From: Candidatus Nomurabacteria bacterium
GTDB lineage: Bacteria > Patescibacteriota > WWE3 > UBA101185 > UBA10185
Reading direction: 5' to 3'
DNA: 64,000 bases
Assembly: GCA_020631855.1 (NCBI GenBank)
Contig: JACKGU010000001.1
Coordinates: 295,601-359,600 of the forward strand
Below, in pieces: positions 18,819 through 46,191 of this stretch (positions within the stretch are counted from its first letter, which is position 1; the number at the start of each line of letters is the position of its first letter). Below the pieces are notes generated by a model. It was not told the origin of the DNA and searched no databases. It worked only from the letters and a program-made list of their open reading frames with translations. Both the position numbers and the translations under genes were made by a program.

Positions 18819-19322
18819 ATGGGATATATACTCGACCTTGATACCGTTGTTTATATCTCACAAGACCTTAGAAGAAGAAAAAAGAAAATAATATACACCC
18901 ACGGAAGCTTCGATCTATTTCATTCCGGACACTCATACCTATTTAATAAAGCAAAAAAACTGGGCGACGTATTAATAGTAGGCGTAGATTCTGACGAAAA
19001 AGTAAGGAAATTTAAAGGGGAGAGAAGACCGGTAAATCAGCACTCGCTTAGAGCTGAGATGGTAAACAACCATAAAGATGTTGATATAGTCTTTTCAATA
19101 GAAGGGTTAGCAGAAAACGAGGAAGATTACTATGTTGGACTATATAAAAAGCTATCTCCGCACATCGTCGTTGTAGGAAACTCTTTTGGGTTTCGGAACA
19201 ATTTCAGAAAGAAACTTGCAAACACTGAGTTCGTTTTAATAGATCTTTTACCCGAACACCAGATCTCTACCACCGACATAATTCAAAAAGTATTAGATAC
19301 GCACGTAGAAAAGTCCGAGTAG
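18819..19322 (+). CDS. Cytidylyl/adenylyl-transferase of the TagD/RfaE-domain-II family
   Basis: 167 aa; (H/T)xGH nucleotidyltransferase motif 'HGSFDLFHSGH'; 'LIVGVDSDEKVRKFKGERRPV' resembles glycerol-3-phosphate cytidylyltransferase and heptose-1-P adenylyltransferase. Confidence 0.65.
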   Translation: MGYILDLDTVVYISQDLRRRKKKIIYTHGSFDLFHSGHSYLFNKAKKLGDVLIVGVDSDEKVRKFKGERRPVNQHSLRAEMVNNHKDVDIVFSIEGLAENEEDYYVGLYKKLSPHIVVVGNSFGFRNNFRKKLANTEFVLIDLLPEHQISTTDIIQKVLDTHVEKSE

Positions 19323-22164: not shown

Positions 22165-22578
22165 AATTTATTCCTAAAATATAAATAACTACTAACCGGG
22201 GATTGAGAATAAAAAACCCCCTGGTTTTACCCAAGAGGCTCAATACTAATGTATTGAAGGTGCCAGCCTTCTTCATACTTATTAACAGCTATAACGGGCA
22301 TTCCCGACTTGGCATTTCCTCCAAGCAGCTCCGTGATTGGAAAATTCACATCAAAGCTTTTTTAGTTTTTTTATACAAACAAACTCAATTATTTGTTAGT
22401 CTGTGTTCGTAAATATAACAATTAAGTGGTCGAGATTCAACCAGTAAATACTTTTTTTAGCAACGATTGATTGCTTTACAGGTCTGCAATCAACACTAAG
22501 AAATGATCCGGACGAAAAACCTGTTCAAACGGTAAGAGCTGGGGAAGAAGCGCAGAAACTTAAATGTTTAATCCCTAT

Positions 22579-24696
22579 CTATTTGGCTTGATTTTTGTAA
22601 ACATTGATCAAAAACTCTACATGTGCATCAAAACCCTCACCTAGTTGTTCAACACCATATAAAATCTCTTCACGATCAATTTTAGCCGCAAAAGCCCTAT
22701 CTTTAAATTTCTTCTTTACTGACGATACTTTCATGCCGTCGTAACCTTCGGGGCGCATCAATGCGTACGCATATAGAAATCCGGCCATCTCATCCACGGC
22801 AATAAGCGCAGAGGCCAGCCTGGTCTGAGGTTTTACATTGGTTCTCATGTGAGCATGAGCTGCAACTGCATGAATTAAACTCTCAGGATAGTTTCTCTCT
22901 TTAAACCATTCTAATGATTTTGCAGGATGCTCATCAGGGTATTCAAAATAATCAAGGTCATGTAATAAACCTGTGATATACCAGAGTTCGCGATCTTCAT
23001 TGAATTTTTCAGCATATGCTTCAAGACCGCGGGCGATCATAAGAGCATGCTGTATTTGATAGCTGTCCTTGACATGGTCCCGTAAAAGCGCCTCCGCCTC
23101 CTTTCTAGAAGGTAGAAATCCCTCGGAGCTAATGTATAAACTCTCGTTTAAATCAGTTTTACTTAGAGAGTCTTCTACTAGAGGATCGCTCTTGGATAAC
23201 CCGTAGATTTCAGCGTTTGCATCGTCGTAAACATGCTTCAATTGAGGAAATGGAACTCCTTCCCTTGCTGTAACATCCTCTAAAAACCAAAAAACTCTTT
23301 CTGAATGACCATAACCAAATGTCGGCGGCATGCCGTATTCAAGCATTTCAACATAATCAATATCGAGCCACTGCGCTTCCGAATCACCGGAATCTCTCAT
23401 TGACTGCTGTTCCGAAAATCGTTCAAACTGATCCAAGCCACTATTTATTTCCGACCAGCCATTTCCGAGTTCGGAGCCGGCAATAATTGGCTGGAAACGC
23501 TCTGTTATTCTGGTATCTTTTGGGTTCGCCTTTGCTAACGGCGACAAATACTTAGGGTGATTAATTAAAAAGGCAGGCCCCCCAATAGTTCTACGTATTT
23601 CTTTCCAAAGAGCGTCCACTAATCGTGGCCGATTCTCTGTCTCTGCCTTTATTCCGGCTTTTTCGCAAGCTAGCTTTAAATCTTCAATACTTGAATTGTG
23701 TACGTCTACTCCATATCTCTGCTTCATGATGTCAGAGAAATCAATCCTTTCCCACTCTTTTTTGGAGAAATCAACTTCAAAACCCCTAATACTGAACTTC
23801 TTCTTATCTCCGTAAAGAGATTCAATCACGTAATTAAAAAGGTCTTGAATAAAATCCATACCTGATTGCCAATCAGCGTAAGCCCAATAAACCTCCATCG
23901 CCATGTGTTCGGGAAGATGCTCGTCGGATAAACCCTCATTTCTGAATCTTGGGCCTATTTCATAAACTTTTTCATAGCCCCCTCCAATTAATCTTTTCAA
24001 AAAAAGTTCATGGGAAATTCTAAGATAAAGAGTCTCATCGATGGAGTCCATATGAGTCACAAAAGGATTCGCGTCTGCCCCTCCGGGCACTGCTTCTAAA
24101 ACAGGAATATTAATCTCATAGAAACCCCTTTTTTCAAAAAACTCGCGATGAGCAGCCCAAAACTTAGAACGTCTAATGTATCTATCACGAACATCATCAT
24201 TTATCCTTGTATCTAGATATCTTTTACGCATTCTGGTCTCTCTGTCTTTAAGCCCATCGTGCTTGTCGGGCAATGGTCTAAGGGATTTGGCCAATATTCT
24301 TATGCTGTGGGGCTCTATAGACTGCTCGCCGCTATTTGTTATTACTAAAGCTCCCTTGCACTCTATATAATCTCCAATATCTAATAAATCCAGCTCAGAG
24401 TAGGATATTTCACTATTTTTGTGTTCAACTTTTTCAAGATTTTGTTCCTTAATATATACCTGAATTGTGCCTGAAAAATCTTTTATATCAAAAAATGTCA
24501 GCTTTCCATGTCTTCTCAACGACATGATCCAACCGGCTAAAATTACTTCCTTTCCCCCAAGTTTGCCAAAGCTGCTTATAACTTCAGAGATTAGGTGGGT
24601 CCTAAAAGACGTTGCCGGATAAGGATCAACGCCTAGATCTTGAAGATTTTTAAGTTTTTGTAATCTTACATCCCTTAGCTCTTTTAAAGTGGCCAT
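22579..24696 (-). CDS. lysS: Lysyl-tRNA synthetase (class II) fused to a C-terminal HD-domain (YqeK-like) phosphohydrolase module
   Basis: Start taken at the 'MATLKELRDVRLQKL' Met (ATG 24694-24696; the ORF extends to 24762). Residues about 1-510 are LysRS (OB anticodon domain, class II motifs 'FRNEGLSDEHLPEHMAMEVY', 'GSELGNGWSEI'). Residues about 525-705 carry H...LLHDLDY...HAVAAHAH...D, the HD-superfamily metal-ligand order. Confidence 0.9.
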   Translation of the reverse strand: MATLKELRDVRLQKLKNLQDLGVDPYPATSFRTHLISEVISSFGKLGGKEVILAGWIMSLRRHGKLTFFDIKDFSGTIQVYIKEQNLEKVEHKNSEISYSELDLLDIGDYIECKGALVITNSGEQSIEPHSIRILAKSLRPLPDKHDGLKDRETRMRKRYLDTRINDDVRDRYIRRSKFWAAHREFFEKRGFYEINIPVLEAVPGGADANPFVTHMDSIDETLYLRISHELFLKRLIGGGYEKVYEIGPRFRNEGLSDEHLPEHMAMEVYWAYADWQSGMDFIQDLFNYVIESLYGDKKKFSIRGFEVDFSKKEWERIDFSDIMKQRYGVDVHNSSIEDLKLACEKAGIKAETENRPRLVDALWKEIRRTIGGPAFLINHPKYLSPLAKANPKDTRITERFQPIIAGSELGNGWSEINSGLDQFERFSEQQSMRDSGDSEAQWLDIDYVEMLEYGMPPTFGYGHSERVFWFLEDVTAREGVPFPQLKHVYDDANAEIYGLSKSDPLVEDSLSKTDLNESLYISSEGFLPSRKEAEALLRDHVKDSYQIQHALMIARGLEAYAEKFNEDRELWYITGLLHDLDYFEYPDEHPAKSLEWFKERNYPESLIHAVAAHAHMRTNVKPQTRLASALIAVDEMAGFLYAYALMRPEGYDGMKVSSVKKKFKDRAFAAKIDREEILYGVEQLGEGFDAHVEFLINVYKNQAK

Positions 24697-24907
24697 TATT
24701 TTATTTCCTAAACTGAATACGTACTTCGCAATTATAACAGAAAAGGGGCAGGTACAAAGCACCCAAAAATAGTGCTAAAACATTTTTACGGCCTAAATTT
24801 TTTTATTTGCTTTTATATTGCTAACCCGAACAAAATTCTTTTAGTACATGGCCTAACCTGCTTATACTAGCCACAAACAACAAAGAACTGTAAAATATCT
24901 GCAGAGT

Positions 24908-25873
24908 ATGAAAAAAATAACTGAAGCTACGATCGCTCAAGGCACTAGGGTTTTTGTGAGTACAGATATAGATGTACCTATAGATAATGGGCATATTAGA
25001 AATACTTTTAGACTCGACCGTGGCTTAGAAACTCTTAAGTACATAGTAGATAAAGGAGCAATCCCAGTAATTGGGGGCCATATAAAAAATCCTCAAGGAA
25101 AATACGATCCCCAGCTTAGTACAGCACCTCTTAAAAAGTATTATAATGAAAAATTAGGGGAGGGTTCTTACGAACTATTAGAAAATCTGCGTTTTGACAT
25201 TAGAGAAGATCAGAATGAGGATACCTACGCACAGGAACTGGCAAATAAAACAGAGGTCTTTGTAAACGAGAATTTTGCAACCTCACATCGAACAAATGCT
25301 TCTTTAGTTGCTATTACTAAATACTTACCTTCATTCGCGGGACTTAATTTGAGCAGAGAAATCGAAGCTTTGGATAAAATACTTATCGACTACAAAAAGC
25401 CTTTTACTGCAGTTATTGGCGGAGCGAAAGTTGAAAGCAAGGCACCTGTTATTGATTCGCTTTGCAACATAGCTGACAATATCCTGCTTGGTGGGAAAAT
25501 AGGCTTAAACTATTCTACGGATAATGCTAGGGTGAGCTCTCCGGCCGACTACGCAGACGGTAATCAAGATATCGGCCCGAAAACAATCCTAAACTATACA
25601 GGATACATACTGTCAGCCCAAACACTTTTATGGGCCGGGCCTATGGGAGCTTATGAAAAAGACGAATTCTGTATTGGTACAAATCTAATCGCAGATGCGA
25701 TAGTGGAAGCAACAAAAGGCGGCGCTTATAGCATAATAGGAGGCGGAGATACGATTACAGCTTATAGCAAGAACCACGCATTGGGAGAAGTAAGTTTTGT
25801 TTCAACAGGAGGAGGGGCCATGCTGACATATCTGGCGCATAAGAATATGCCCGGCATTGAGGCTTTAGGATAA
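24908..25873 (+). CDS. pgk: Phosphoglycerate kinase (compact, 321 aa)
   Basis: 'RVFVSTDIDVPIDNGHIRNTFRLDRG', 'LENLRFDIRE', 'VIGGAKVESKAPVIDSL', 'GGGDT...STGGGAML' PGK blocks. About 70 aa shorter than typical PGK. Confidence 0.9.
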   Translation: MKKITEATIAQGTRVFVSTDIDVPIDNGHIRNTFRLDRGLETLKYIVDKGAIPVIGGHIKNPQGKYDPQLSTAPLKKYYNEKLGEGSYELLENLRFDIREDQNEDTYAQELANKTEVFVNENFATSHRTNASLVAITKYLPSFAGLNLSREIEALDKILIDYKKPFTAVIGGAKVESKAPVIDSLCNIADNILLGGKIGLNYSTDNARVSSPADYADGNQDIGPKTILNYTGYILSAQTLLWAGPMGAYEKDEFCIGTNLIADAIVEATKGGAYSIIGGGDTITAYSKNHALGEVSFVSTGGGAMLTYLAHKNMPGIEALG

Positions 25874-25876
25874 ATT

Positions 25877-26179
25877 ATGGCAAAAAGTTTAAAAGTTCAG
25901 TTTCCGGAACGTTGCATAGGCTGCGAACTGTGCATCATGGAAATACAAAGACAGCTTAAAAAACACGGCCTCGAAGGTTCTCTGATTAGAGTTTTTAAAA
26001 GTGCCAAAGAAGGAAAAGAAATATGCGAGACTCTGGAATACTCAATAGATCTAGACCCGAGCATAAATTCATACGACATTGAACAAATTAGGAAAATTTG
26101 CCCAAAAAGTGTTTTTGTTGTGGCCGACATGACAGAAGAAGAGAACTACGAAGACGCTCTGCTGGAACAGAAAGATTAA
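25877..26179 (+). CDS. Small ferredoxin-like Cys-cluster protein
   Basis: 100 aa; 'CIGCELC' (C-x2-C-x2-C) plus a distal 'ICP' Cys-Pro could ligate one [4Fe-4S]. Starts 4 nt after the pgk stop. Confidence 0.5.
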   Translation: MAKSLKVQFPERCIGCELCIMEIQRQLKKHGLEGSLIRVFKSAKEGKEICETLEYSIDLDPSINSYDIEQIRKICPKSVFVVADMTEEENYEDALLEQKD

Positions 26180-26181
26180 AT

Positions 26182-27015
26182 ATGCATAAATCAGTCTTAT
26201 TTGTTAATTTAAAAAATAAAACATACGAGGTTAAAAAATTTGACGAACTCGCAAAATACATAGGAGGAGTTGCTGTTGGATTTAAACTTCTTCTTGATAA
26301 TATAGAGCACGATCCAATTATATTTTCTATCGGACCTTTGAACGGCGTGTTTCCTTTCGCATCAAAAACTTCTATCGTTCTGCATAACAATGGCGTAGTC
26401 GAAGACTTATATATCGGGGGTTCCCTAAGCTCCAGAATGGCCTTTTCCGGGGTTGACTCCATAGTATTTATAGAATCCGCAGAAGAGCCCACATACGTTG
26501 AAATAACGAATGAGGAAGTGTTCTTTAAACCAATAACAACTGATATAGATTCTTTAGGATTACCGGGGAAAAGATCAGTTTTAAAACCAATTAAAAATAA
26601 ATACTTTTTAGATGATTATTTTTTAACTCCGGAGTTATTTTTTGAAGAAAAGCTTGCAAAGAAAAATGTAGGAGGAATAGTGTTAACAGGAACAAAAACA
26701 CGTGAAATAAAAAATCCTGAAAAATATAAGGAACTTTTACACGAAATATTAGGTAAAAAGTCTTTAATGGAAATAGATGAGGGAGATAGCCCCTCTTGCA
26801 CATTTTGTCCAATGGGGTGCTCAAAGTCTCGTACCGGAGAAATTGGAGGAAACATATTGGTACACAGCATGGTGGGATGCAAGCTTAGCCAAAAAATATA
26901 CAGCGACGTGGGAACAATTTTTTCTTGCTTGAGTGTGTTGGGCTATTCCTACACACACGAAGATATTGAAGACCTGCCTCTTCTGGTAAAAGAGGTACTG
27001 GAAAAATTAAATTAA
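26182..27015 (+). CDS. Truncated aldehyde:ferredoxin oxidoreductase (AOR) N-domain-like Fe-S protein
   Basis: 278 aa (start taken at 26182, not the upstream out-of-context ATG at 26098). 'VLFVNLKNKTYEVKKFDEL...GGVAVGFKLLLD...PIIFSIGPLNGVFPFASKTSIV...DLYIGGSLSSRMAFSGVDSIVFIESAEEPTYVEI' parallels the AOR N-domain ('IRVNLSTG.I...LGGRGL...LL..E....DPL.P.N.L..A.GPLTGT.AP...R..V..KSPLTG......GG..G.ELK.AG.D.IVV.G.AEKPVY'). 'CTFCPMGC' matches the AOR C-x2-C-x3-C cluster motif. There is no pterin-binding C-terminal half. Stop overlaps the tpiA start (TAATG). Confidence 0.55.
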   Translation: MHKSVLFVNLKNKTYEVKKFDELAKYIGGVAVGFKLLLDNIEHDPIIFSIGPLNGVFPFASKTSIVLHNNGVVEDLYIGGSLSSRMAFSGVDSIVFIESAEEPTYVEITNEEVFFKPITTDIDSLGLPGKRSVLKPIKNKYFLDDYFLTPELFFEEKLAKKNVGGIVLTGTKTREIKNPEKYKELLHEILGKKSLMEIDEGDSPSCTFCPMGCSKSRTGEIGGNILVHSMVGCKLSQKIYSDVGTIFSCLSVLGYSYTHEDIEDLPLLVKEVLEKLN

Positions 27016-27671
27016 TGAAATATTTAGTAGCAAACTGGAAATCTAATATGACAGTCTCCGAGGTTATTGTCTGGCTAAAAGCTTGGGATAAACTAATAAA
27101 AAGCGCAGAGAGTAATGATGCGGTAAGAGTTTTAGTAGCCCCTTGTTTTATACATCTTCCATTATTTACCGGTCTGGAAAATATTTATTCTTGCGGGCAG
27201 GATGTCTCGGAGAACAGCGTAGGGCCTTATACCGGATACGTGAATGCTACACAGCTAAGGGAATTCGCTGATTACAGCATAGTCGGGCACAGCGAAAGAA
27301 ATGAAGACTCTGAAACAGTTGTCAAAAAGATTAATCAGTGTAGAAATAACGGAATTGAGGCCATTGCTTGTTTCACTCACACTGAAAATGCAACAGAGTA
27401 TTCAAAATTCACAAAGATCTTAGCTTGGGAGGACCCTGAAAATATATCAAAACAAGGAAAGTATGCAGAATTAAGGTATGGTGAAATAAATCACTCTATT
27501 GAAAAAATTTACTCTAATATTGAACCCGATACTGTGTTATTATACGGAGGCTCTGTTAACTCGAATAATATTAGCGAATTAACTAGAATTAAGAGTATAT
27601 CGGGGTTTTTAGTAGGAAACGCAAGTCTGGACGTGGCTCACTTTTATAAGCTATACTGCTCCATGATCTAG
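27015..27671 (+). CDS. tpiA: Triosephosphate isomerase (compact, 218 aa)
   Basis: 'VANWKSN', 'GHSERN', 'YGGSVN', 'GFLVGNASL' TIM motifs. Confidence 0.9.
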   Translation: MKYLVANWKSNMTVSEVIVWLKAWDKLIKSAESNDAVRVLVAPCFIHLPLFTGLENIYSCGQDVSENSVGPYTGYVNATQLREFADYSIVGHSERNEDSETVVKKINQCRNNGIEAIACFTHTENATEYSKFTKILAWEDPENISKQGKYAELRYGEINHSIEKIYSNIEPDTVLLYGGSVNSNNISELTRIKSISGFLVGNASLDVAHFYKLYCSMI

Positions 27672-31246: not shown

Positions 31247-31828
31247 TCAATTAATATAGTAAATAGCAAATGTAACTATAAGAGTATCCTTTCCGGAATT
31301 GGGATTGGAATCTACATCCGCCCGTGCACTAACCACTGCGTATACTCTTTTTGAGACACTCAGGTCCTGCAGAAATTTAGGCAAAGCAGAAATATCTCCT
31401 GTTAACTTAGCAGAATAGAGCTCAGAGTATTCAACATAATCCGACTTCGTCACACTGGAATCATTGGAGGATGTCCCCTTGACTTCATCAAGCGACAGTC
31501 CGTTAATCCTTGCTATCTGTGATAGTTCAAAAATCATACCATCGTAGTCCTTTTCAACGGGAACTCCATTCATAATAATTTCAGTTTTTAAATTTCTTAC
31601 TAAATAAGGCTCGAGCAGAGCTACACGATTTATATTGTTTTTTATAATAGTTCCTTGCTCCGAAAACTCTTTAACGAGATCTTTCTTATATTTATAGGCG
31701 GAATAACCCCTAACGGCACCGAAATATCCCACAACAACTACATTAAAAGCTAAAAAGCACAGAAACAAAACAAAATTTCTGTAAGGTCGGCTTTGTATTT
31801 CTCGATCATAATAATTATTCAACTTCAT
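31247..31828 (-). CDS. PilO-like bitopic membrane protein (putative type IV pilus alignment component)
   Basis: 193 aa; single N-terminal TM (FVLFLCFLAFNVVVVGYFGA); 'MIFELSQIARINGLSLDEV' resembles the conserved PilO segment. 4-nt overlap with the upstream PilN-like gene. Confidence 0.35.
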   Translation of the reverse strand: MKLNNYYDREIQSRPYRNFVLFLCFLAFNVVVVGYFGAVRGYSAYKYKKDLVKEFSEQGTIIKNNINRVALLEPYLVRNLKTEIIMNGVPVEKDYDGMIFELSQIARINGLSLDEVKGTSSNDSSVTKSDYVEYSELYSAKLTGDISALPKFLQDLSVSKRVYAVVSARADVDSNPNSGKDTLIVTFAIYYIN

Positions 31829-32466
31829 TTGTATGTAACCTCTATCGAAATATCATACGAGCCCCCGCGATTTAAGCCTGCGTACAATAAACTGATTGAT
31901 TCTATATCTTTGTTTGAAAAAAGATTAGACATATAGATAGAAGCGTTTATCGGCTCGGAAACAACAATGTTTAGGTTTGCTTTATCAGTATCAAATGACG
32001 TGCTAGAGTAAAAACCCTTCGGCACATCCGTATTCATTACTTCTGCGTGTCTGCTGATCAGACTTCTTTTTGACTCTATAGATTTGTAAGTAGCTATACG
32101 ATCATTTACTTTAGTAACATCGGCAATAATATCTTTTCTGCTGCTGAAAGTATCTGACAAGTCTTCGACTTCTATTACAAGCTGCTCAAGCTGTCGGTTA
32201 ACTGAAAAGTTAAGCAGAAGGATAATCAAATATATTACCTGAATAAAAATGATTAAATAAACTATTATCCTCGGGGTAGAGTCGGGAATACTAATACTTT
32301 TTTCTTGAAATAAGTTTGGGGTATAAATAGGCTCAGTTGCCTCTAGCGGCTCATTTAGTGGCTGGTTTAGTCTTTGCTTTAGATTTTGAAGCTTTTTCTT
32401 TGCTGGCAGTAGAAACTTTAGTTTCTTTTTCAGCTGTATTTTTTTCTTTTTCTGGACCTTGGGCAT
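31825..32466 (-). CDS. PilN-like bitopic membrane protein (start uncertain; ORF overlaps rpsT 3' end)
   Basis: 213 aa ORF; K-rich N-terminus, TM (IIVYLIIFIQVIYLIILLLNFSV), coiled-coil 'NRQLEQLVIEVEDLSD', then an alpha/beta region. The first 39 codons overlap rpsT in another frame. Confidence 0.35.
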   Translation of the reverse strand: MPKVQKKKKIQLKKKLKFLLPAKKKLQNLKQRLNQPLNEPLEATEPIYTPNLFQEKSISIPDSTPRIIVYLIIFIQVIYLIILLLNFSVNRQLEQLVIEVEDLSDTFSSRKDIIADVTKVNDRIATYKSIESKRSLISRHAEVMNTDVPKGFYSSTSFDTDKANLNIVVSEPINASIYMSNLFSNKDIESISLLYAGLNRGGSYDISIEVTYK

Positions 32467-45507: not shown

Positions 45508-46191
45508 GTGTTCCAGCCCATACAGATTAATATGCAGATAGAAAACTACGACAATAATCAAATAGCCGAGCTTTTGCGTGATGCAAAAAGCGTTGGCATA
45601 ATAGCCTCAAGACTAAATCAACCGGATACTTTCTGTGCCGCTTCTGGACTCTACTTGATGCTCAAAAATACGTTCGAAGACAAAGAAATTAAACTTATTT
45701 ACAAAGGCGACATCCCCACAGAATGCAGCAATTTAATAAATAGCGAAGACGTTCACGCCAATGTCGATGAGAGAGACTTGGTAGTGACTGTGAACTACAA
45801 AGGGACAAGCGCATCAAAGGTACAATATAGCACTGAAGACGGAGTATTTCAGTTCAGGCTCGGCCCTGTGCCGAAATATTTTGATTTGGGCAACATTCAA
45901 AGCGTACTTTCAGGATTCGACTTCGATGTTGTGGTTACCATAGGTATTCCTGACCTCGAGGTAACAGGGAGTCTATACAGTAGCCTGAAGCACGAACTTA
46001 GCAGCGCAAAAATTGTAAACATAGACAATACAGGACTAAATAAAAGGTTTGGGAGCGTCAATGTAATTGATACGCAAGCAAGCTCACTTAGTACACTGGT
46101 CTTTAATTTAGCGGCAGAATGGAAACTCAAACCAACTGCAAAATCTGCAAAAATGCTGTTAGTAGGGGTTTCATCTACAAGCATAGACTAG
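45508..46191 (+). CDS. Hypothetical protein with possible degenerate DHH-phosphoesterase (NrnA-like) layout
   Basis: 227 aa; 'IIASRLNQPDTFCAASGLYLML' vs NrnA '[23 protein letters not shown]'; 'KIVNIDNTGLNKRFGSV' vs 'KLMKIDHHPNEDPYGDL' (DHH replaced by DNT). Sits between infB and rpsO, where rbfA/truB or a DHH nanoRNase sit in other bacteria. Confidence 0.3.
   Translation: MFQPIQINMQIENYDNNQIAELLRDAKSVGIIASRLNQPDTFCAASGLYLMLKNTFEDKEIKLIYKGDIPTECSNLINSEDVHANVDERDLVVTVNYKGTSASKVQYSTEDGVFQFRLGPVPKYFDLGNIQSVLSGFDFDVVVTIGIPDLEVTGSLYSSLKHELSSAKIVNIDNTGLNKRFGSVNVIDTQASSLSTLVFNLAAEWKLKPTAKSAKMLLVGVSSTSID

Follow-up and report, generated by a model that had tools for sequence, protein, structure and literature searches.

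Positions 22579 to 24696 of the window (the whole 64,000-nucleotide stretch of DNA analysed here) carry one reading frame in which a class II lysyl-tRNA synthetase (LysRS) is followed by an HD domain. This raises the question whether both parts belong to a single protein, and what a putative phosphohydrolase would do at the end of a synthetase. The original prediction had proposed a fusion of LysRS to a YqeK-like domain that would hydrolyse Ap4A, and had described the architecture as uncharacterised. Indeed, no paper describing a LysRS-HD architecture was found in the literature searched. Present annotations of such genes go no further than 'lysine--tRNA ligase' or 'HD domain-containing protein'.

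A LysRS-HD fusion gene and its occurrence in Patescibacteria

The fusion gene (22579..24696, minus strand) is complete, encodes 705 amino acids and ends with the stop codon at 22579-22581. On this strand a single uninterrupted ORF runs to the stop from either GTG 24762 or ATG 24696. The upstream GTG as alternative start would yield a product of 727 aa. ATG 24696 is the likely start, because it is preceded by an AGGA element 7 nt upstream, the orthologues start with MATLKELR and the version deposited at NCBI comprises 705 aa. The predicted ORF is thus confirmed both by its continuous frame and by an identical 705-aa protein in NCBI. The Shine-Dalgarno-like AGGA (24706..24709, minus strand) and a -10-like TTATAAT (24731-24737, minus strand) were both found by direct reading of the sequence; the latter is absent from the list of the consensus promoter scan. 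Promoter and terminator scans around the gene gave matches at chance level only, and an Rfam search in and around it revealed no match and therefore no T-box or other leader.

Four parts make up the protein: the class II LysRS, its short and conserved tail, a disordered linker and an HD domain of 180 aa. In the 705-aa protein Pfam recovered tRNA_anti-codon (OB, PF01336, residues 51-135), tRNA-synt_2 (PF00152, residues 152-485, 2e-59) and HD (PF01966, residues 548-629, 34 bits with a cutoff of 22). The N-terminal helix and the OB-fold anticodon-binding domain (residues 1-150) are encoded at 24247..24696 and the class II catalytic core (residues 151-488) at 23233..24246, both on the minus strand. 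Mean identity across 110 fusion orthologues is 47% for residues 1-150, 64% for the core, 59% for the HD domain and only 7% for the linker; the HD domain is thus conserved to the same degree as the essential core of the synthetase. Residues 6-488 are matched by the lysine--tRNA ligase models of NCBIfam, which are by far the best matches for this region and whose cutoffs are missed by a fraction of a percent (TIGR00499, 427.2 versus 427.6 bits; PRK00484, 464.1 versus 468). The class II LysRS core residues are invariant across 72 orthologues, and the architecture typical of these enzymes, an N-terminal OB anticodon-binding domain and a class II (D/K/N) catalytic core, is present. The first part of the fusion is the housekeeping class II LysRS of the organism.

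The core is followed by a short conserved tail (residues 489-500; 23197..23232, minus strand) with T494 in most orthologues (N here), I497 and an invariant Y498, and the same tail ends the unfused LysRS of WWE3, which comprise about 501-505 aa. The adjoining linker (residues 501-525; 23122..23196, minus strand) is variable, of low complexity and disordered, with a length variation of 50-103 aa among the orthologues. The AF2 model (pTM 0.70) shows two confident bodies, a stretch with pLDDT below 50 at residues 504-520 and no confident placement of the HD domain on the synthetase. The HD domain is thus tethered to LysRS through some 25 flexible residues.

A word-index search with the C-terminal domain alone returned only stand-alone proteins, and neither the protein of the window itself nor any other fusion, which suggested a one-off fusion or an artefact. 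That was overturned by the full-length search. The identical 705-aa protein is found on at least five contigs from independent sources, and more than 100 distinct 90%-identity clusters (690-740 aa) with the same three domains exist in Patescibacteria. Fusion orthologues share 48-66% identity, and the frame is uninterrupted in 22 GTDB species representatives. The fusion is therefore real and recurrent, and an assembly frameshift joining two genes, against which the original prediction had cautioned, is contradicted. That a lost stop or a frameshift united two adjacent genes would fit the separate, adjacent genes of WWE3 relatives and a linker as poorly conserved as a translated spacer, but the identical protein from several independent assemblies, the many diverged clusters and a linker in which no in-frame start or ribosome binding site for a separate HD gene was noticed (residues 489-552 contain no Met) leave this explanation with a practically negligible probability.

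Fusion is only one of the arrangements in which the two genes occur. Among 80 GTDB species loci of the HD family, 22 are fused, six have a class II lysS and two a class I LysRS gene just upstream, and 46, all titled as non-CPR taxa, contain a stand-alone HD gene with no lysS within 4 kb. In WWE3 genomes the HD gene lies directly downstream of lysS as a separate gene. The order there is greA-lysS (501-505 aa)-HD (181-183 aa)-serS with gaps of 4-85 nt, a synteny as in the window. The gene order of the window matches the conserved lysS-serS-secA of the WWE3 relatives; greA was not identified in the window. A 69-aa antisense ORF between lysS-HD and serS occupies the same position as a 69-aa ORF in one WWE3 locus (L002), to which it has no sequence similarity. 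The only nucleotidyltransferase-like gene nearby (18819-19322, 167 aa) was considered as NadD, the usual partner of YqeK, and was ruled out as it is RfaE-domain-II-like.

The HD domain is also found at the N-terminus of LysRS (HD-LysRS, cluster P0311, at least nine contigs), in a lineage whose LysRS is much nearer to the typical bacterial model (627 versus 464 bits). Furthermore, triple fusions of the types LysRS-NUDIX-HD (P0323), LysRS-HD-DUF2000, LysRS-DUF2000-HD and LysRS-tRNA_bind-HD were identified. At E<=1e-10 the HD family numbers about 1,800 representative clusters, and most of its members are small stand-alone proteins without an RNA-binding domain. In non-CPR taxa its members are separate proteins of about 185 aa, whose genes show no linkage to lysS and lie in diverse surroundings (redoxin, MlaD, DUF445, transporters). 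Therefore the ancestral role of the family is not LysRS-specific. In Patescibacteria LysRS has acquired the HD family as a partner several times, as an adjacent gene in the operon and as a fusion with either of the two in front. As the pairing recurs in several independent arrangements, the activities of LysRS and the HD hydrolase are probably coupled.

The HD domain and its relation to YqeK

The HD domain (residues 526-705; 22582..23121, minus strand) is predicted to be an HDIG-type binuclear phosphohydrolase of a sister family of YqeK. It scores above threshold with the models of the HD superfamily (PF01966, 34.4-37.6 bits versus 22; TIGR00277, HDIG, 30.3-33.2 versus 27.6); the family as such has no curated model. 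The codons of the six predicted metal ligands span 22792..23049 on the minus strand: H550 (23047-23049), H579 (22960-22962), D580 (22957-22959), H590 (22927-22929), H614 (22855-22857) and D635 (22792-22794). All six are invariant in 111 of 111 fusions, and in 76 diverse stand-alone proteins of the HD family they are invariant or nearly so. D582 and E636, whose codons lie inside the same span, are likewise invariant in the 111 fusions, and distant stand-alone relatives have conserved them too. The original prediction was right that the binuclear ligand set is complete, but it overlooked H590 in the motif 'DEHPAKS'. Of the histidines in its motif 'HAVAAHAH' only H614 is invariant, whereas H609 is found in 79 and H616 in 55 of the 111 fusions. 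Its match of the YqeK 'WH' to H609 was in the wrong register, since the profile alignment sets the third His of YqeK on H590. Judged from its conserved residues, the HD domain is presumably catalytically competent and enzymatically active. A family-specific conserved basic helix, 'SVKKKFKDRAFAAKIDR' (K662, K663, K665, F669, R675; 22672..22713, minus strand), which is not found in YqeK, is a candidate binding site for phosphate or the RNA backbone.

Searches of the PDB with the single sequence of the HD domain and with a CPR-only profile (A1) gave nothing significant; citrate synthase (E about 1) was a chance match, and the E-value of PgpH was 0.74. YqeK was revealed only by the broader family profile (A2). 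With the profile of 76 family members the first five matches in the PDB are all YqeK (E 8.6e-7 to 1.5e-3), and hhalign aligned the HD family with YqeK (97.8%, E 9.5e-13) including the six ligands. The YqeK proteins (COG1713, TIGR00488; PDB 2O08, 2OGI, 3CCG, 8WMY, 8JJA), symmetrical Ap4A/Ap4N hydrolases of Firmicutes and others that split Ap4A into 2 ADP, likewise have an HD fold of about 180-200 aa. The ligands correspond one-to-one, with H550/H579/D580/H590/H614/D635 here and H29/H58/D59/H91/H117/D135 in YqeK. Both are fused to or clustered with an adenylyl-transferring enzyme, the genomic partner being nadD for YqeK and lysS for the HD domain of the window.

The resemblance to YqeK noticed in the original prediction is therefore well founded in so far as YqeK is the nearest characterised family; membership in YqeK, however, was rejected. 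The curated model TIGR00488 (cutoff 70.15 bits) matches neither the window protein nor its C-terminal domain even at E<=10, and diverse family members reach only 16-21 bits. YqeK carries an Arg at position -3 from the first ligand His (R18 in Geobacillus, R26 in Streptococcus), which is invariant in the YqeK alignment (A5) and needed for phosphate recognition (PMC13627108, PMC8177086). Here this position is Q547, and the fusions contain Q (101 of 111) or L (10 of 111). The lysine of the YqeK motif HDxxK (K62 in S. pyogenes), whose exchange in the K62A mutant abolishes activity (PMC11857287), is missing in H579-D580-L-D582-Y583, the family having Y, W or F at the Lys position. In comparison to the HD domain of the window, YqeK contains an insert of about 22 residues between the HD dyad and the third His. 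Its C-terminal half of about 70 residues, with the nucleotide pocket (R133/F135/F163) and the motif ADYIExNRxF, could not be aligned; the family-specific K-K-x-K...F-A...R helix would take the place of that pocket. Based on these alignments the HD domain is assigned to a distant, uncharacterised sister family of YqeK with a shared, predicted metal-binding catalytic core and a C-terminal, presumably substrate-binding half of its own.

Possible roles of the tethered HD domain

The fusion as such, its repeated occurrence, the complete ligand set, the tether and the homology to the YqeK core are established, whereas enzymatic activity of the HD domain and its substrate are inferred. LysRS is the main producer of Ap4A and Ap4N (PMC13627108, PMC10148737). 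By analogy to the NadD-YqeK fusion of mycoplasmas, we tentatively favour a bifunctional enzyme in which the HD hydrolase would remove the side-products of LysRS (Ap4A/ApnN) at their source. The tethered domain would hydrolyse dinucleoside polyphosphates (Ap4A, Ap3A, Ap4N) that arise as side-products of adenylyl transfer, acting beside the main source of these compounds, and the fusion would serve as a device for metabolite-damage pre-emption in a minimal genome. Ap4A/ApnN are plausible substrates. In P0323 the fusion also contains NUDIX, the second classic fold of ApnA hydrolases, which we count in favour of such a clean-up. So we do with the range of YqeK, which was reported from Firmicutes, Thermotoga and Deinococcus-Thermus (PMC10148737) and does not extend to the phyla with this HD family.

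That the HD domain hydrolyses Ap4A is something we infer from association, and this argument loses a little of its force, since the HD gene is found behind class I LysRS as well and is unlinked to lysS outside CPR. Class I LysRS requires tRNA for lysine activation and is not known as a source of Ap4A; the literature searched for a link between this enzyme and Ap4A gave nothing informative. Further observations speak against the clean-up of side-products. By fold the HD domain is just as close to the HD domain of GlyRS-beta, to HD-GYP and to PgpH. The HD domain is devoid of residues which are essential for binding or hydrolysis of Ap4A in YqeK (R18, K62; R133/F135/F163 being unalignable) (PMC13627108, PMC11857287), and the co-fusions with DUF2000 and a tRNA-binding domain hint at functions at the level of tRNA.

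Such a function is the subject of the first alternative, according to which the HD domain acts on RNA, tRNA(Lys) or Lys-tRNA and not on free dinucleotides. As a 3'-end phosphoesterase or a 2',3'-cyclic phosphodiesterase it might make tRNA ends chargeable again, it might remove Np4 caps, or it might form a quality-control module with DUF2000. The linkage with both classes of LysRS fits this alternative, as what they have in common is tRNA(Lys), lysine and ATP and not the Ap4A chemistry of class II. So do the co-fusions with the tRNA-binding domain (PF01588) and, in several orders, with DUF2000, the weak matches of family relatives to the HD part of aTrm56-HD fusions (PRK12703) and to RNase Y, and the invariant basic residues K662, K665 and R675 of the helix that YqeK does not possess. 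Moreover, YqeK and LysRS are both linked to Np4A RNA caps (PMC10148737, PMC13627108). On the other hand, the family profiles reach YqeK ahead of any RNA-acting HD protein, and most family members do without an RNA-binding domain. The non-catalytic HD domain of GlyRS-beta has lost its HD dyad, while all ligands are invariant here; the tether is long, disordered and variable in length, and the AF2 model shows no confident placement of the domain on the synthetase. DUF2000, a presumably PTH2-like domain, is of little help here: its profile matched solely 2GAX, a protein of unknown function, which provides no functional clue, and a literature search for DUF2000 yielded no paper. An action on RNA is regarded as rather unlikely.

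Alternatively, the HD domain could be a general housekeeping hydrolase of the nucleotide pool, with NTP/dNTP, 8-oxo-GTP, NMP, (p)ppGpp-like compounds or pApA/cyclic dinucleotides as substrates. Co-expression and inherited gene order in streamlined genomes would in this case account for the linkage to lysS, and the fusion would have occurred by loss of a short spacer without any coupling at the substrate level. The 46 stand-alone loci with their unrelated neighbours agree with this, and the short gene gap in WWE3 makes fusion mechanically easy. The order greA-lysK-HD could be due to an in-situ displacement of lysS by the class I enzyme within an inherited operon. In addition, YqeK-type enzymes are promiscuous diphosphatases (PMC9426524), and c-di-AMP and c-di-GMP phosphodiesterases are among the fold neighbours of the HD domain. 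However, the fusion arose more than once and in both orientations, one case being that of the P0311 lineage with its more typical LysRS, the modules were shuffled (LysRS-DUF2000-HD versus LysRS-HD-DUF2000), and orthologues with as little as 48% identity have kept the fusion. An essential synthetase rarely retains a neutral fusion with an unrelated enzyme for so long, and a role in the nucleotide pool without coupling to LysRS is considered doubtful.

A wider and speculative reading, to which we assign a low probability, is that LysRS, HD and DUF2000 form a modular quality control of lysine charging in Patescibacteria, i.e. a new phosphohydrolase-based proofreading of aminoacyl-tRNA synthetases. 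HD would destroy aberrant adenylylated products (candidates being non-cognate aminoacyl-adenylates, Ap4N or Np4-capped RNA made by LysRS) and DUF2000 would act on the tRNA ester, while in Thermoleophilia, Opitutae and Chloroflexi the stand-alone family would provide the Ap4A-type hydrolase that is missing there. A non-catalytic accessory role, either structural and tRNA-binding as in GlyRS-beta or as an allosteric nucleotide sensor that regulates LysRS, has a precedent in the degenerate HD domain inside that synthetase (PMC8464048), which is also the top structural match, but was rejected as highly improbable in view of the invariant metal ligands together with D582 and E636, their conservation in distant stand-alone relatives and the existence of the domain as an independent protein in most lineages.

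Ap4A may be a regulated alarmone or chiefly a damage metabolite that aminoacyl-tRNA synthetases give rise to, a question of long standing. The repeated fusion of a YqeK-like domain to LysRS in either order, sometimes together with NUDIX, represents a natural experiment on that question in minimal genomes. If the HD domain degrades Ap4A/ApnN as favoured here, these organisms treat the by-products of LysRS as waste that is removed at its source, and the new, widespread family could provide Ap4A hydrolysis in phyla without YqeK and ApaH. If tRNA or an aminoacyl-adenylate is the substrate, the domain would add to the synthetase an editing or repair activity of a new type.

Comparison with known systems

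By fold the top match of the HD domain is the HD domain of GlyRS-beta. The PgpH and HD-GYP phosphodiesterases (PDB 4S1B, 4MCW) differ from the HD domain of the window, which has no HHE...GYP motif and no 7TM or receiver partner. The signature HHExxDGxGYP is absent from residues 526-705 by direct reading, Pfam revealed no membrane or receiver domain, and the profile E-values to HD-GYP/PgpH are only 0.1-0.74, far weaker than those to YqeK.

The HD domain of GlyRS-beta from the bacterial and plastid (alpha-beta)2 GlyRS (PDB 7EIV, 8IE2, 7XJY) has lost the His-Asp dyad, which is Ser-Lys (S393-K394) in E. coli. It does not bind nucleotides, is rigidly integrated and contacts the tRNA acceptor arm (PMC8464048). 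In contrast, the HD domain appended to LysRS has kept all ligands and is connected by a disordered tether.

LysX of mycobacteria (MprF-LysRS, NF002821) is also a class II LysRS fused to a second enzyme that is tied to the chemistry of the synthetase. However, its N-terminal membrane lysyl-phosphatidylglycerol synthase consumes Lys-tRNA, whereas the second part of the window protein is a C-terminal, soluble and predicted metal phosphohydrolase. The LysX model matches only the LysRS part of the window protein.

The NadD-YqeK fusion of mycoplasmas (JCVISYN3A_0380; PMC9426524) likewise occurs in a minimal-genome organism and likewise combines a nucleotidyl (adenylyl) transferase with a YqeK-type HD domain, which in that case hydrolyses the erroneous dinucleotide products of NadD (PMC9426524). 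It comprises a bona fide YqeK of demonstrated activity with NadD as partner, while the fusion in the window combines LysRS with a member of the sister family whose activity is predicted from sequence.

The fused gene and its domains

The gene studied (22579-24696) lies on the minus strand as one open reading frame, with a start at 24762 (GTG) or 24696 (ATG) and a stop at 22579-22581. The ATG is probably the one used, because AGGA lies 7 nt upstream, the beginning MATLKELR is common to the orthologues and the identical NCBI protein has 705 aa. Pfam assigns an OB anticodon-binding domain (residues 51-135), a class II D/K/N synthetase core (residues 152-485, E 2e-59) and an HD domain (residues 548-629, 34 bits versus a cutoff of 22). 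Residues 6-488 match the lysine--tRNA ligase models of NCBIfam at about the curated cutoffs, and at the C-terminus the generic HDIG model is the sole NCBIfam match. The original prediction of a lysyl-tRNA synthetase (LysRS) followed by an HD domain is therefore correct.

A full-length search shows that the fusion is no assembly artefact: besides the protein itself it returned over 100 other 90%-identity clusters of 690-740 aa, all built from these three domains. They are 48-66% identical to the window protein and come from many independent contigs (NCBI, JGI, ENA, Logan). In the GTDB species genomes scanned, at least 596 species carry the HD family, and 22 of the best 80 loci have an uninterrupted LysRS-HD frame. 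An artefact is thus unlikely. The identical 705-aa sequence is deposited under four NCBI accessions from WWE3 or Nomurabacteria MAGs, labelled merely 'HD domain-containing protein', and public annotation of LysRS-HD proteins is likewise generic. When the 182-aa C-terminal domain was used by itself as the query, a word-index search missed the window's own 100%-identical protein and every fusion; sub-domain queries taken from long proteins can in such homology searches mislead on architecture.

Conservation was expressed as mean identity to the window protein across an alignment of 111 fusions. It amounts to 64% for the synthetase core, 47% for the anticodon-binding domain and 59% for the HD domain (residues 526-700), so that the constraint on the latter appears about equal to that on the essential synthetase core. 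The tail behind the core (residues 489-500) is moderately conserved with an invariant Y498, and residues 501-525 show 7% identity in a spacer whose length varies by more than 50 residues. AlphaFold2 predicts the isolated HD domain with a pLDDT of 96.5; in the full-length model (pTM 0.70) two confidently predicted bodies are connected by a segment (504-520) with pLDDT below 50. The HD domain is probably flexibly tethered to LysRS and not rigidly docked.

Metal site and relation to YqeK

H550, H579, D580, D582, H590, H614, D635 and E636 do not vary in any of the 111 fusions. Among 76 diverse relatives that stand alone (30-66% identity) H550, H579, D580 and H590 are invariant as well, and H614, D635 and E636 are at least 90% conserved. 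As judged from these residues, the domain bears the six-ligand pattern H...HD...H...H...D that marks binuclear HD enzymes (review PMC8177086), and would act like a binuclear HD phosphohydrolase; a non-catalytic role is unlikely. A complete ligand set had been predicted and is present, but the predicted list missed H590 and counted the variable H609 and H616.

The predicted likeness to YqeK, the symmetrical Ap4A hydrolase, holds only in part. A profile of the broad HD family matched in the PDB sequences five YqeK structures at the top (E 8.6e-7 to 1.5e-3), and hhalign against a YqeK alignment (97.8% probability, E 9.5e-13) paired all six ligands one-to-one. However, only HD-domain residues 6-113 are included in this alignment, the C-terminal ~70 residues remain unaligned, and the domain lacks an extra segment of ~22 residues that YqeK has between its HD dyad and third His. 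The YqeK equivalog model TIGR00488 does not match the window protein and reaches 16-21 bits on relatives versus a cutoff of 70, no better than the weak matches of these relatives to the HD part of aTrm56-HD fusions, RNase Y or DVU_1551 transferases; curated models recognise only 'HD' and 'HDIG' in the domain. Ap4A binding and hydrolysis by YqeK need R18 and R133 (double mutant), F135 and F163 (double mutant) and the Lys of HDxxK (PMC13627108, PMC11857287). None of these is recognisable in the LysRS-HD domain, where Q547 (Q or L across the fusions) stands at the place of R18 and HDxxK reads HDLDY. What the family has instead is an invariant basic helix of its own (K662, K663, K665, F669, R675) plus R648. 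By these comparisons the domain would belong to a sister family with the catalytic core of YqeK and a different substrate-binding half, and is not a YqeK.

Genomic association with LysRS genes

The strongest evidence is that from comparative genomics. In WWE3 genomes lysS (501-505 aa) and the HD gene (181-183 aa) are separate, adjacent and co-oriented, 4-85 nt apart, in the order greA-lysS-HD...serS, and the window matches this gene order (lysS-HD, serS, methyltransferase, bacA, secA). In four species the HD gene directly follows a LysRS-DUF2000 fusion gene. In two further species (L035:2311-4528 on CAZZBW010000013.1; L039:89-2265 on CAYXMW010000057.1; both GTDB MAG contigs) a class I LysRS (PF01921, E 1e-80, 558 aa) lies 14 nt upstream of the HD gene, with greA before it, so the linkage spans both unrelated synthetase classes. 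In the cluster P0311 (715 aa, 8 members, at least 9 contigs) the order is reversed: the HD domain is N-terminal to a LysRS much nearer to the typical bacterial model (627 bits), which implies a separate fusion event in a different lineage.

Further fusions are LysRS-HD-DUF2000, LysRS-DUF2000-HD, LysRS-tRNA_bind-HD and LysRS-NUDIX-HD. The last is a singleton on a 6.7-kb Logan contig (P0323, 935 aa), whose NUDIX part weakly matches the NudC, YtkD and RppH models. DUF2000 (PF09391), also found in LysRS-DUF2000 with a separate HD gene, is a third recurrent module (loci L008:2026-4531, L016:153-1978, L020:75-2074 and L033:1217-4546; proteins P0188, P0179, P0240 and P0242). Its profile matches in the PDB 2GAX alone (Atu0240, a protein of unknown function), and we take its fold to be PTH2-like. 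The LysRS-HD association has formed or been reshaped several times over, and this speaks for functional coupling. The family is mostly stand-alone (~185 aa; 207 representative clusters at E<=1e-30, 1,774 at E<=1e-10), and in Opitutaceae, Thermoleophilaceae/Solirubrobacterales, Caldilineaceae, Rhodothermales and Saprospiraceae no lysS was found within 4 kb of the HD gene, whose neighbours in these non-CPR groups are heterogeneous. This speaks against an ancestral role specific to LysRS.

The genes of the window (ribosomal protein, SecA, serS, pgk, tpi, GrpE etc.) are those of a typical core region of Patescibacteria; EF-Tu/EF-G and RNAP beta/beta' were assigned by ORF size alone. Neither tRNA nor tmRNA genes were found in the 64 kb, and the window ORFs scanned included no NUDIX, HIT, ApaH or NadD gene. 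A 167-aa ORF at 18819-19322 (+), which lies between secA and bacA in the opposite orientation and overlaps the bacA 3' end by ~30 nt, was rejected as NadD and is an RfaE-domain-II-like adenylyltransferase. The 415-nt non-coding gap from the lysS-HD stop to the serS start (22165-22578) has no Rfam match; it contains a terminator-like hairpin (22214-22241, minus strand) and a 69-aa antisense ORF (22203-22412), with a merely positional counterpart of 69 aa, without sequence similarity, in the WWE3 locus L002. In the stretch 24908-27671 (+) an unusually short pgk (321 aa), whose match to the PGK part of PRK13962 is split into three, precedes a Cys-rich ORF of 100 aa without family (25877-26179), a 305-aa ORF whose only domain is the N-terminal one of aldehyde:ferredoxin oxidoreductase (26098-27015), and a short tpi (218 aa). 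Near 24-26 kb the GC skew changes sign, coinciding with a flip of gene orientation from mostly minus to mostly plus. Two adjacent ORFs of 193 and 213 aa (31247-32466, minus strand) match no family at all, and the sole match of a 227-aa ORF at 45508-46191 (+) is a sub-threshold one to the DHH family.

Possible function of the tethered domain

We tentatively favour a clean-up hydrolase, in which the tethered HD domain would clear dinucleoside polyphosphates or other adenylylated LysRS by-products. Ap4A/Ap4N come mainly from LysRS, which can also cap RNA with Np4A in vitro (PMC13627108, PMC10148737), NadD-YqeK offers a precedent, and in the single LysRS-NUDIX-HD protein the scaffold also bears the other classical ApnA-hydrolase fold. 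A phosphoesterase directed at RNA or tRNA(Lys) is the main rival and rather less probable; the linkage to class I LysRS, the co-fusions with DUF2000 and a tRNA-binding domain, the basic helix and a structural match to GlyRS-beta, whose domain contacts the acceptor arm (PMC8464048), speak for it. Somewhat less probable again is a general nucleotide-pool enzyme linked to lysS by co-expression only, which fits the unlinked stand-alone genes outside the CPR.

The architecture had been described as not known to be characterised, and the literature searched indeed makes no mention of a LysRS-HD fusion. The HD family, its repeated recruitment to both LysRS classes and the shuffling of LysRS, HD and DUF2000 modules appear undescribed, while aminoacyl-tRNA synthetases with an appended enzyme and YqeK-like HD hydrolases are already familiar. 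For joining an adenylyltransferase to a YqeK-type HD domain, a direct precedent comes from the minimal genome of mycoplasma, where the HD domain of NadD-YqeK hydrolyses erroneous dinucleotides produced by NadD (PMC9426524).
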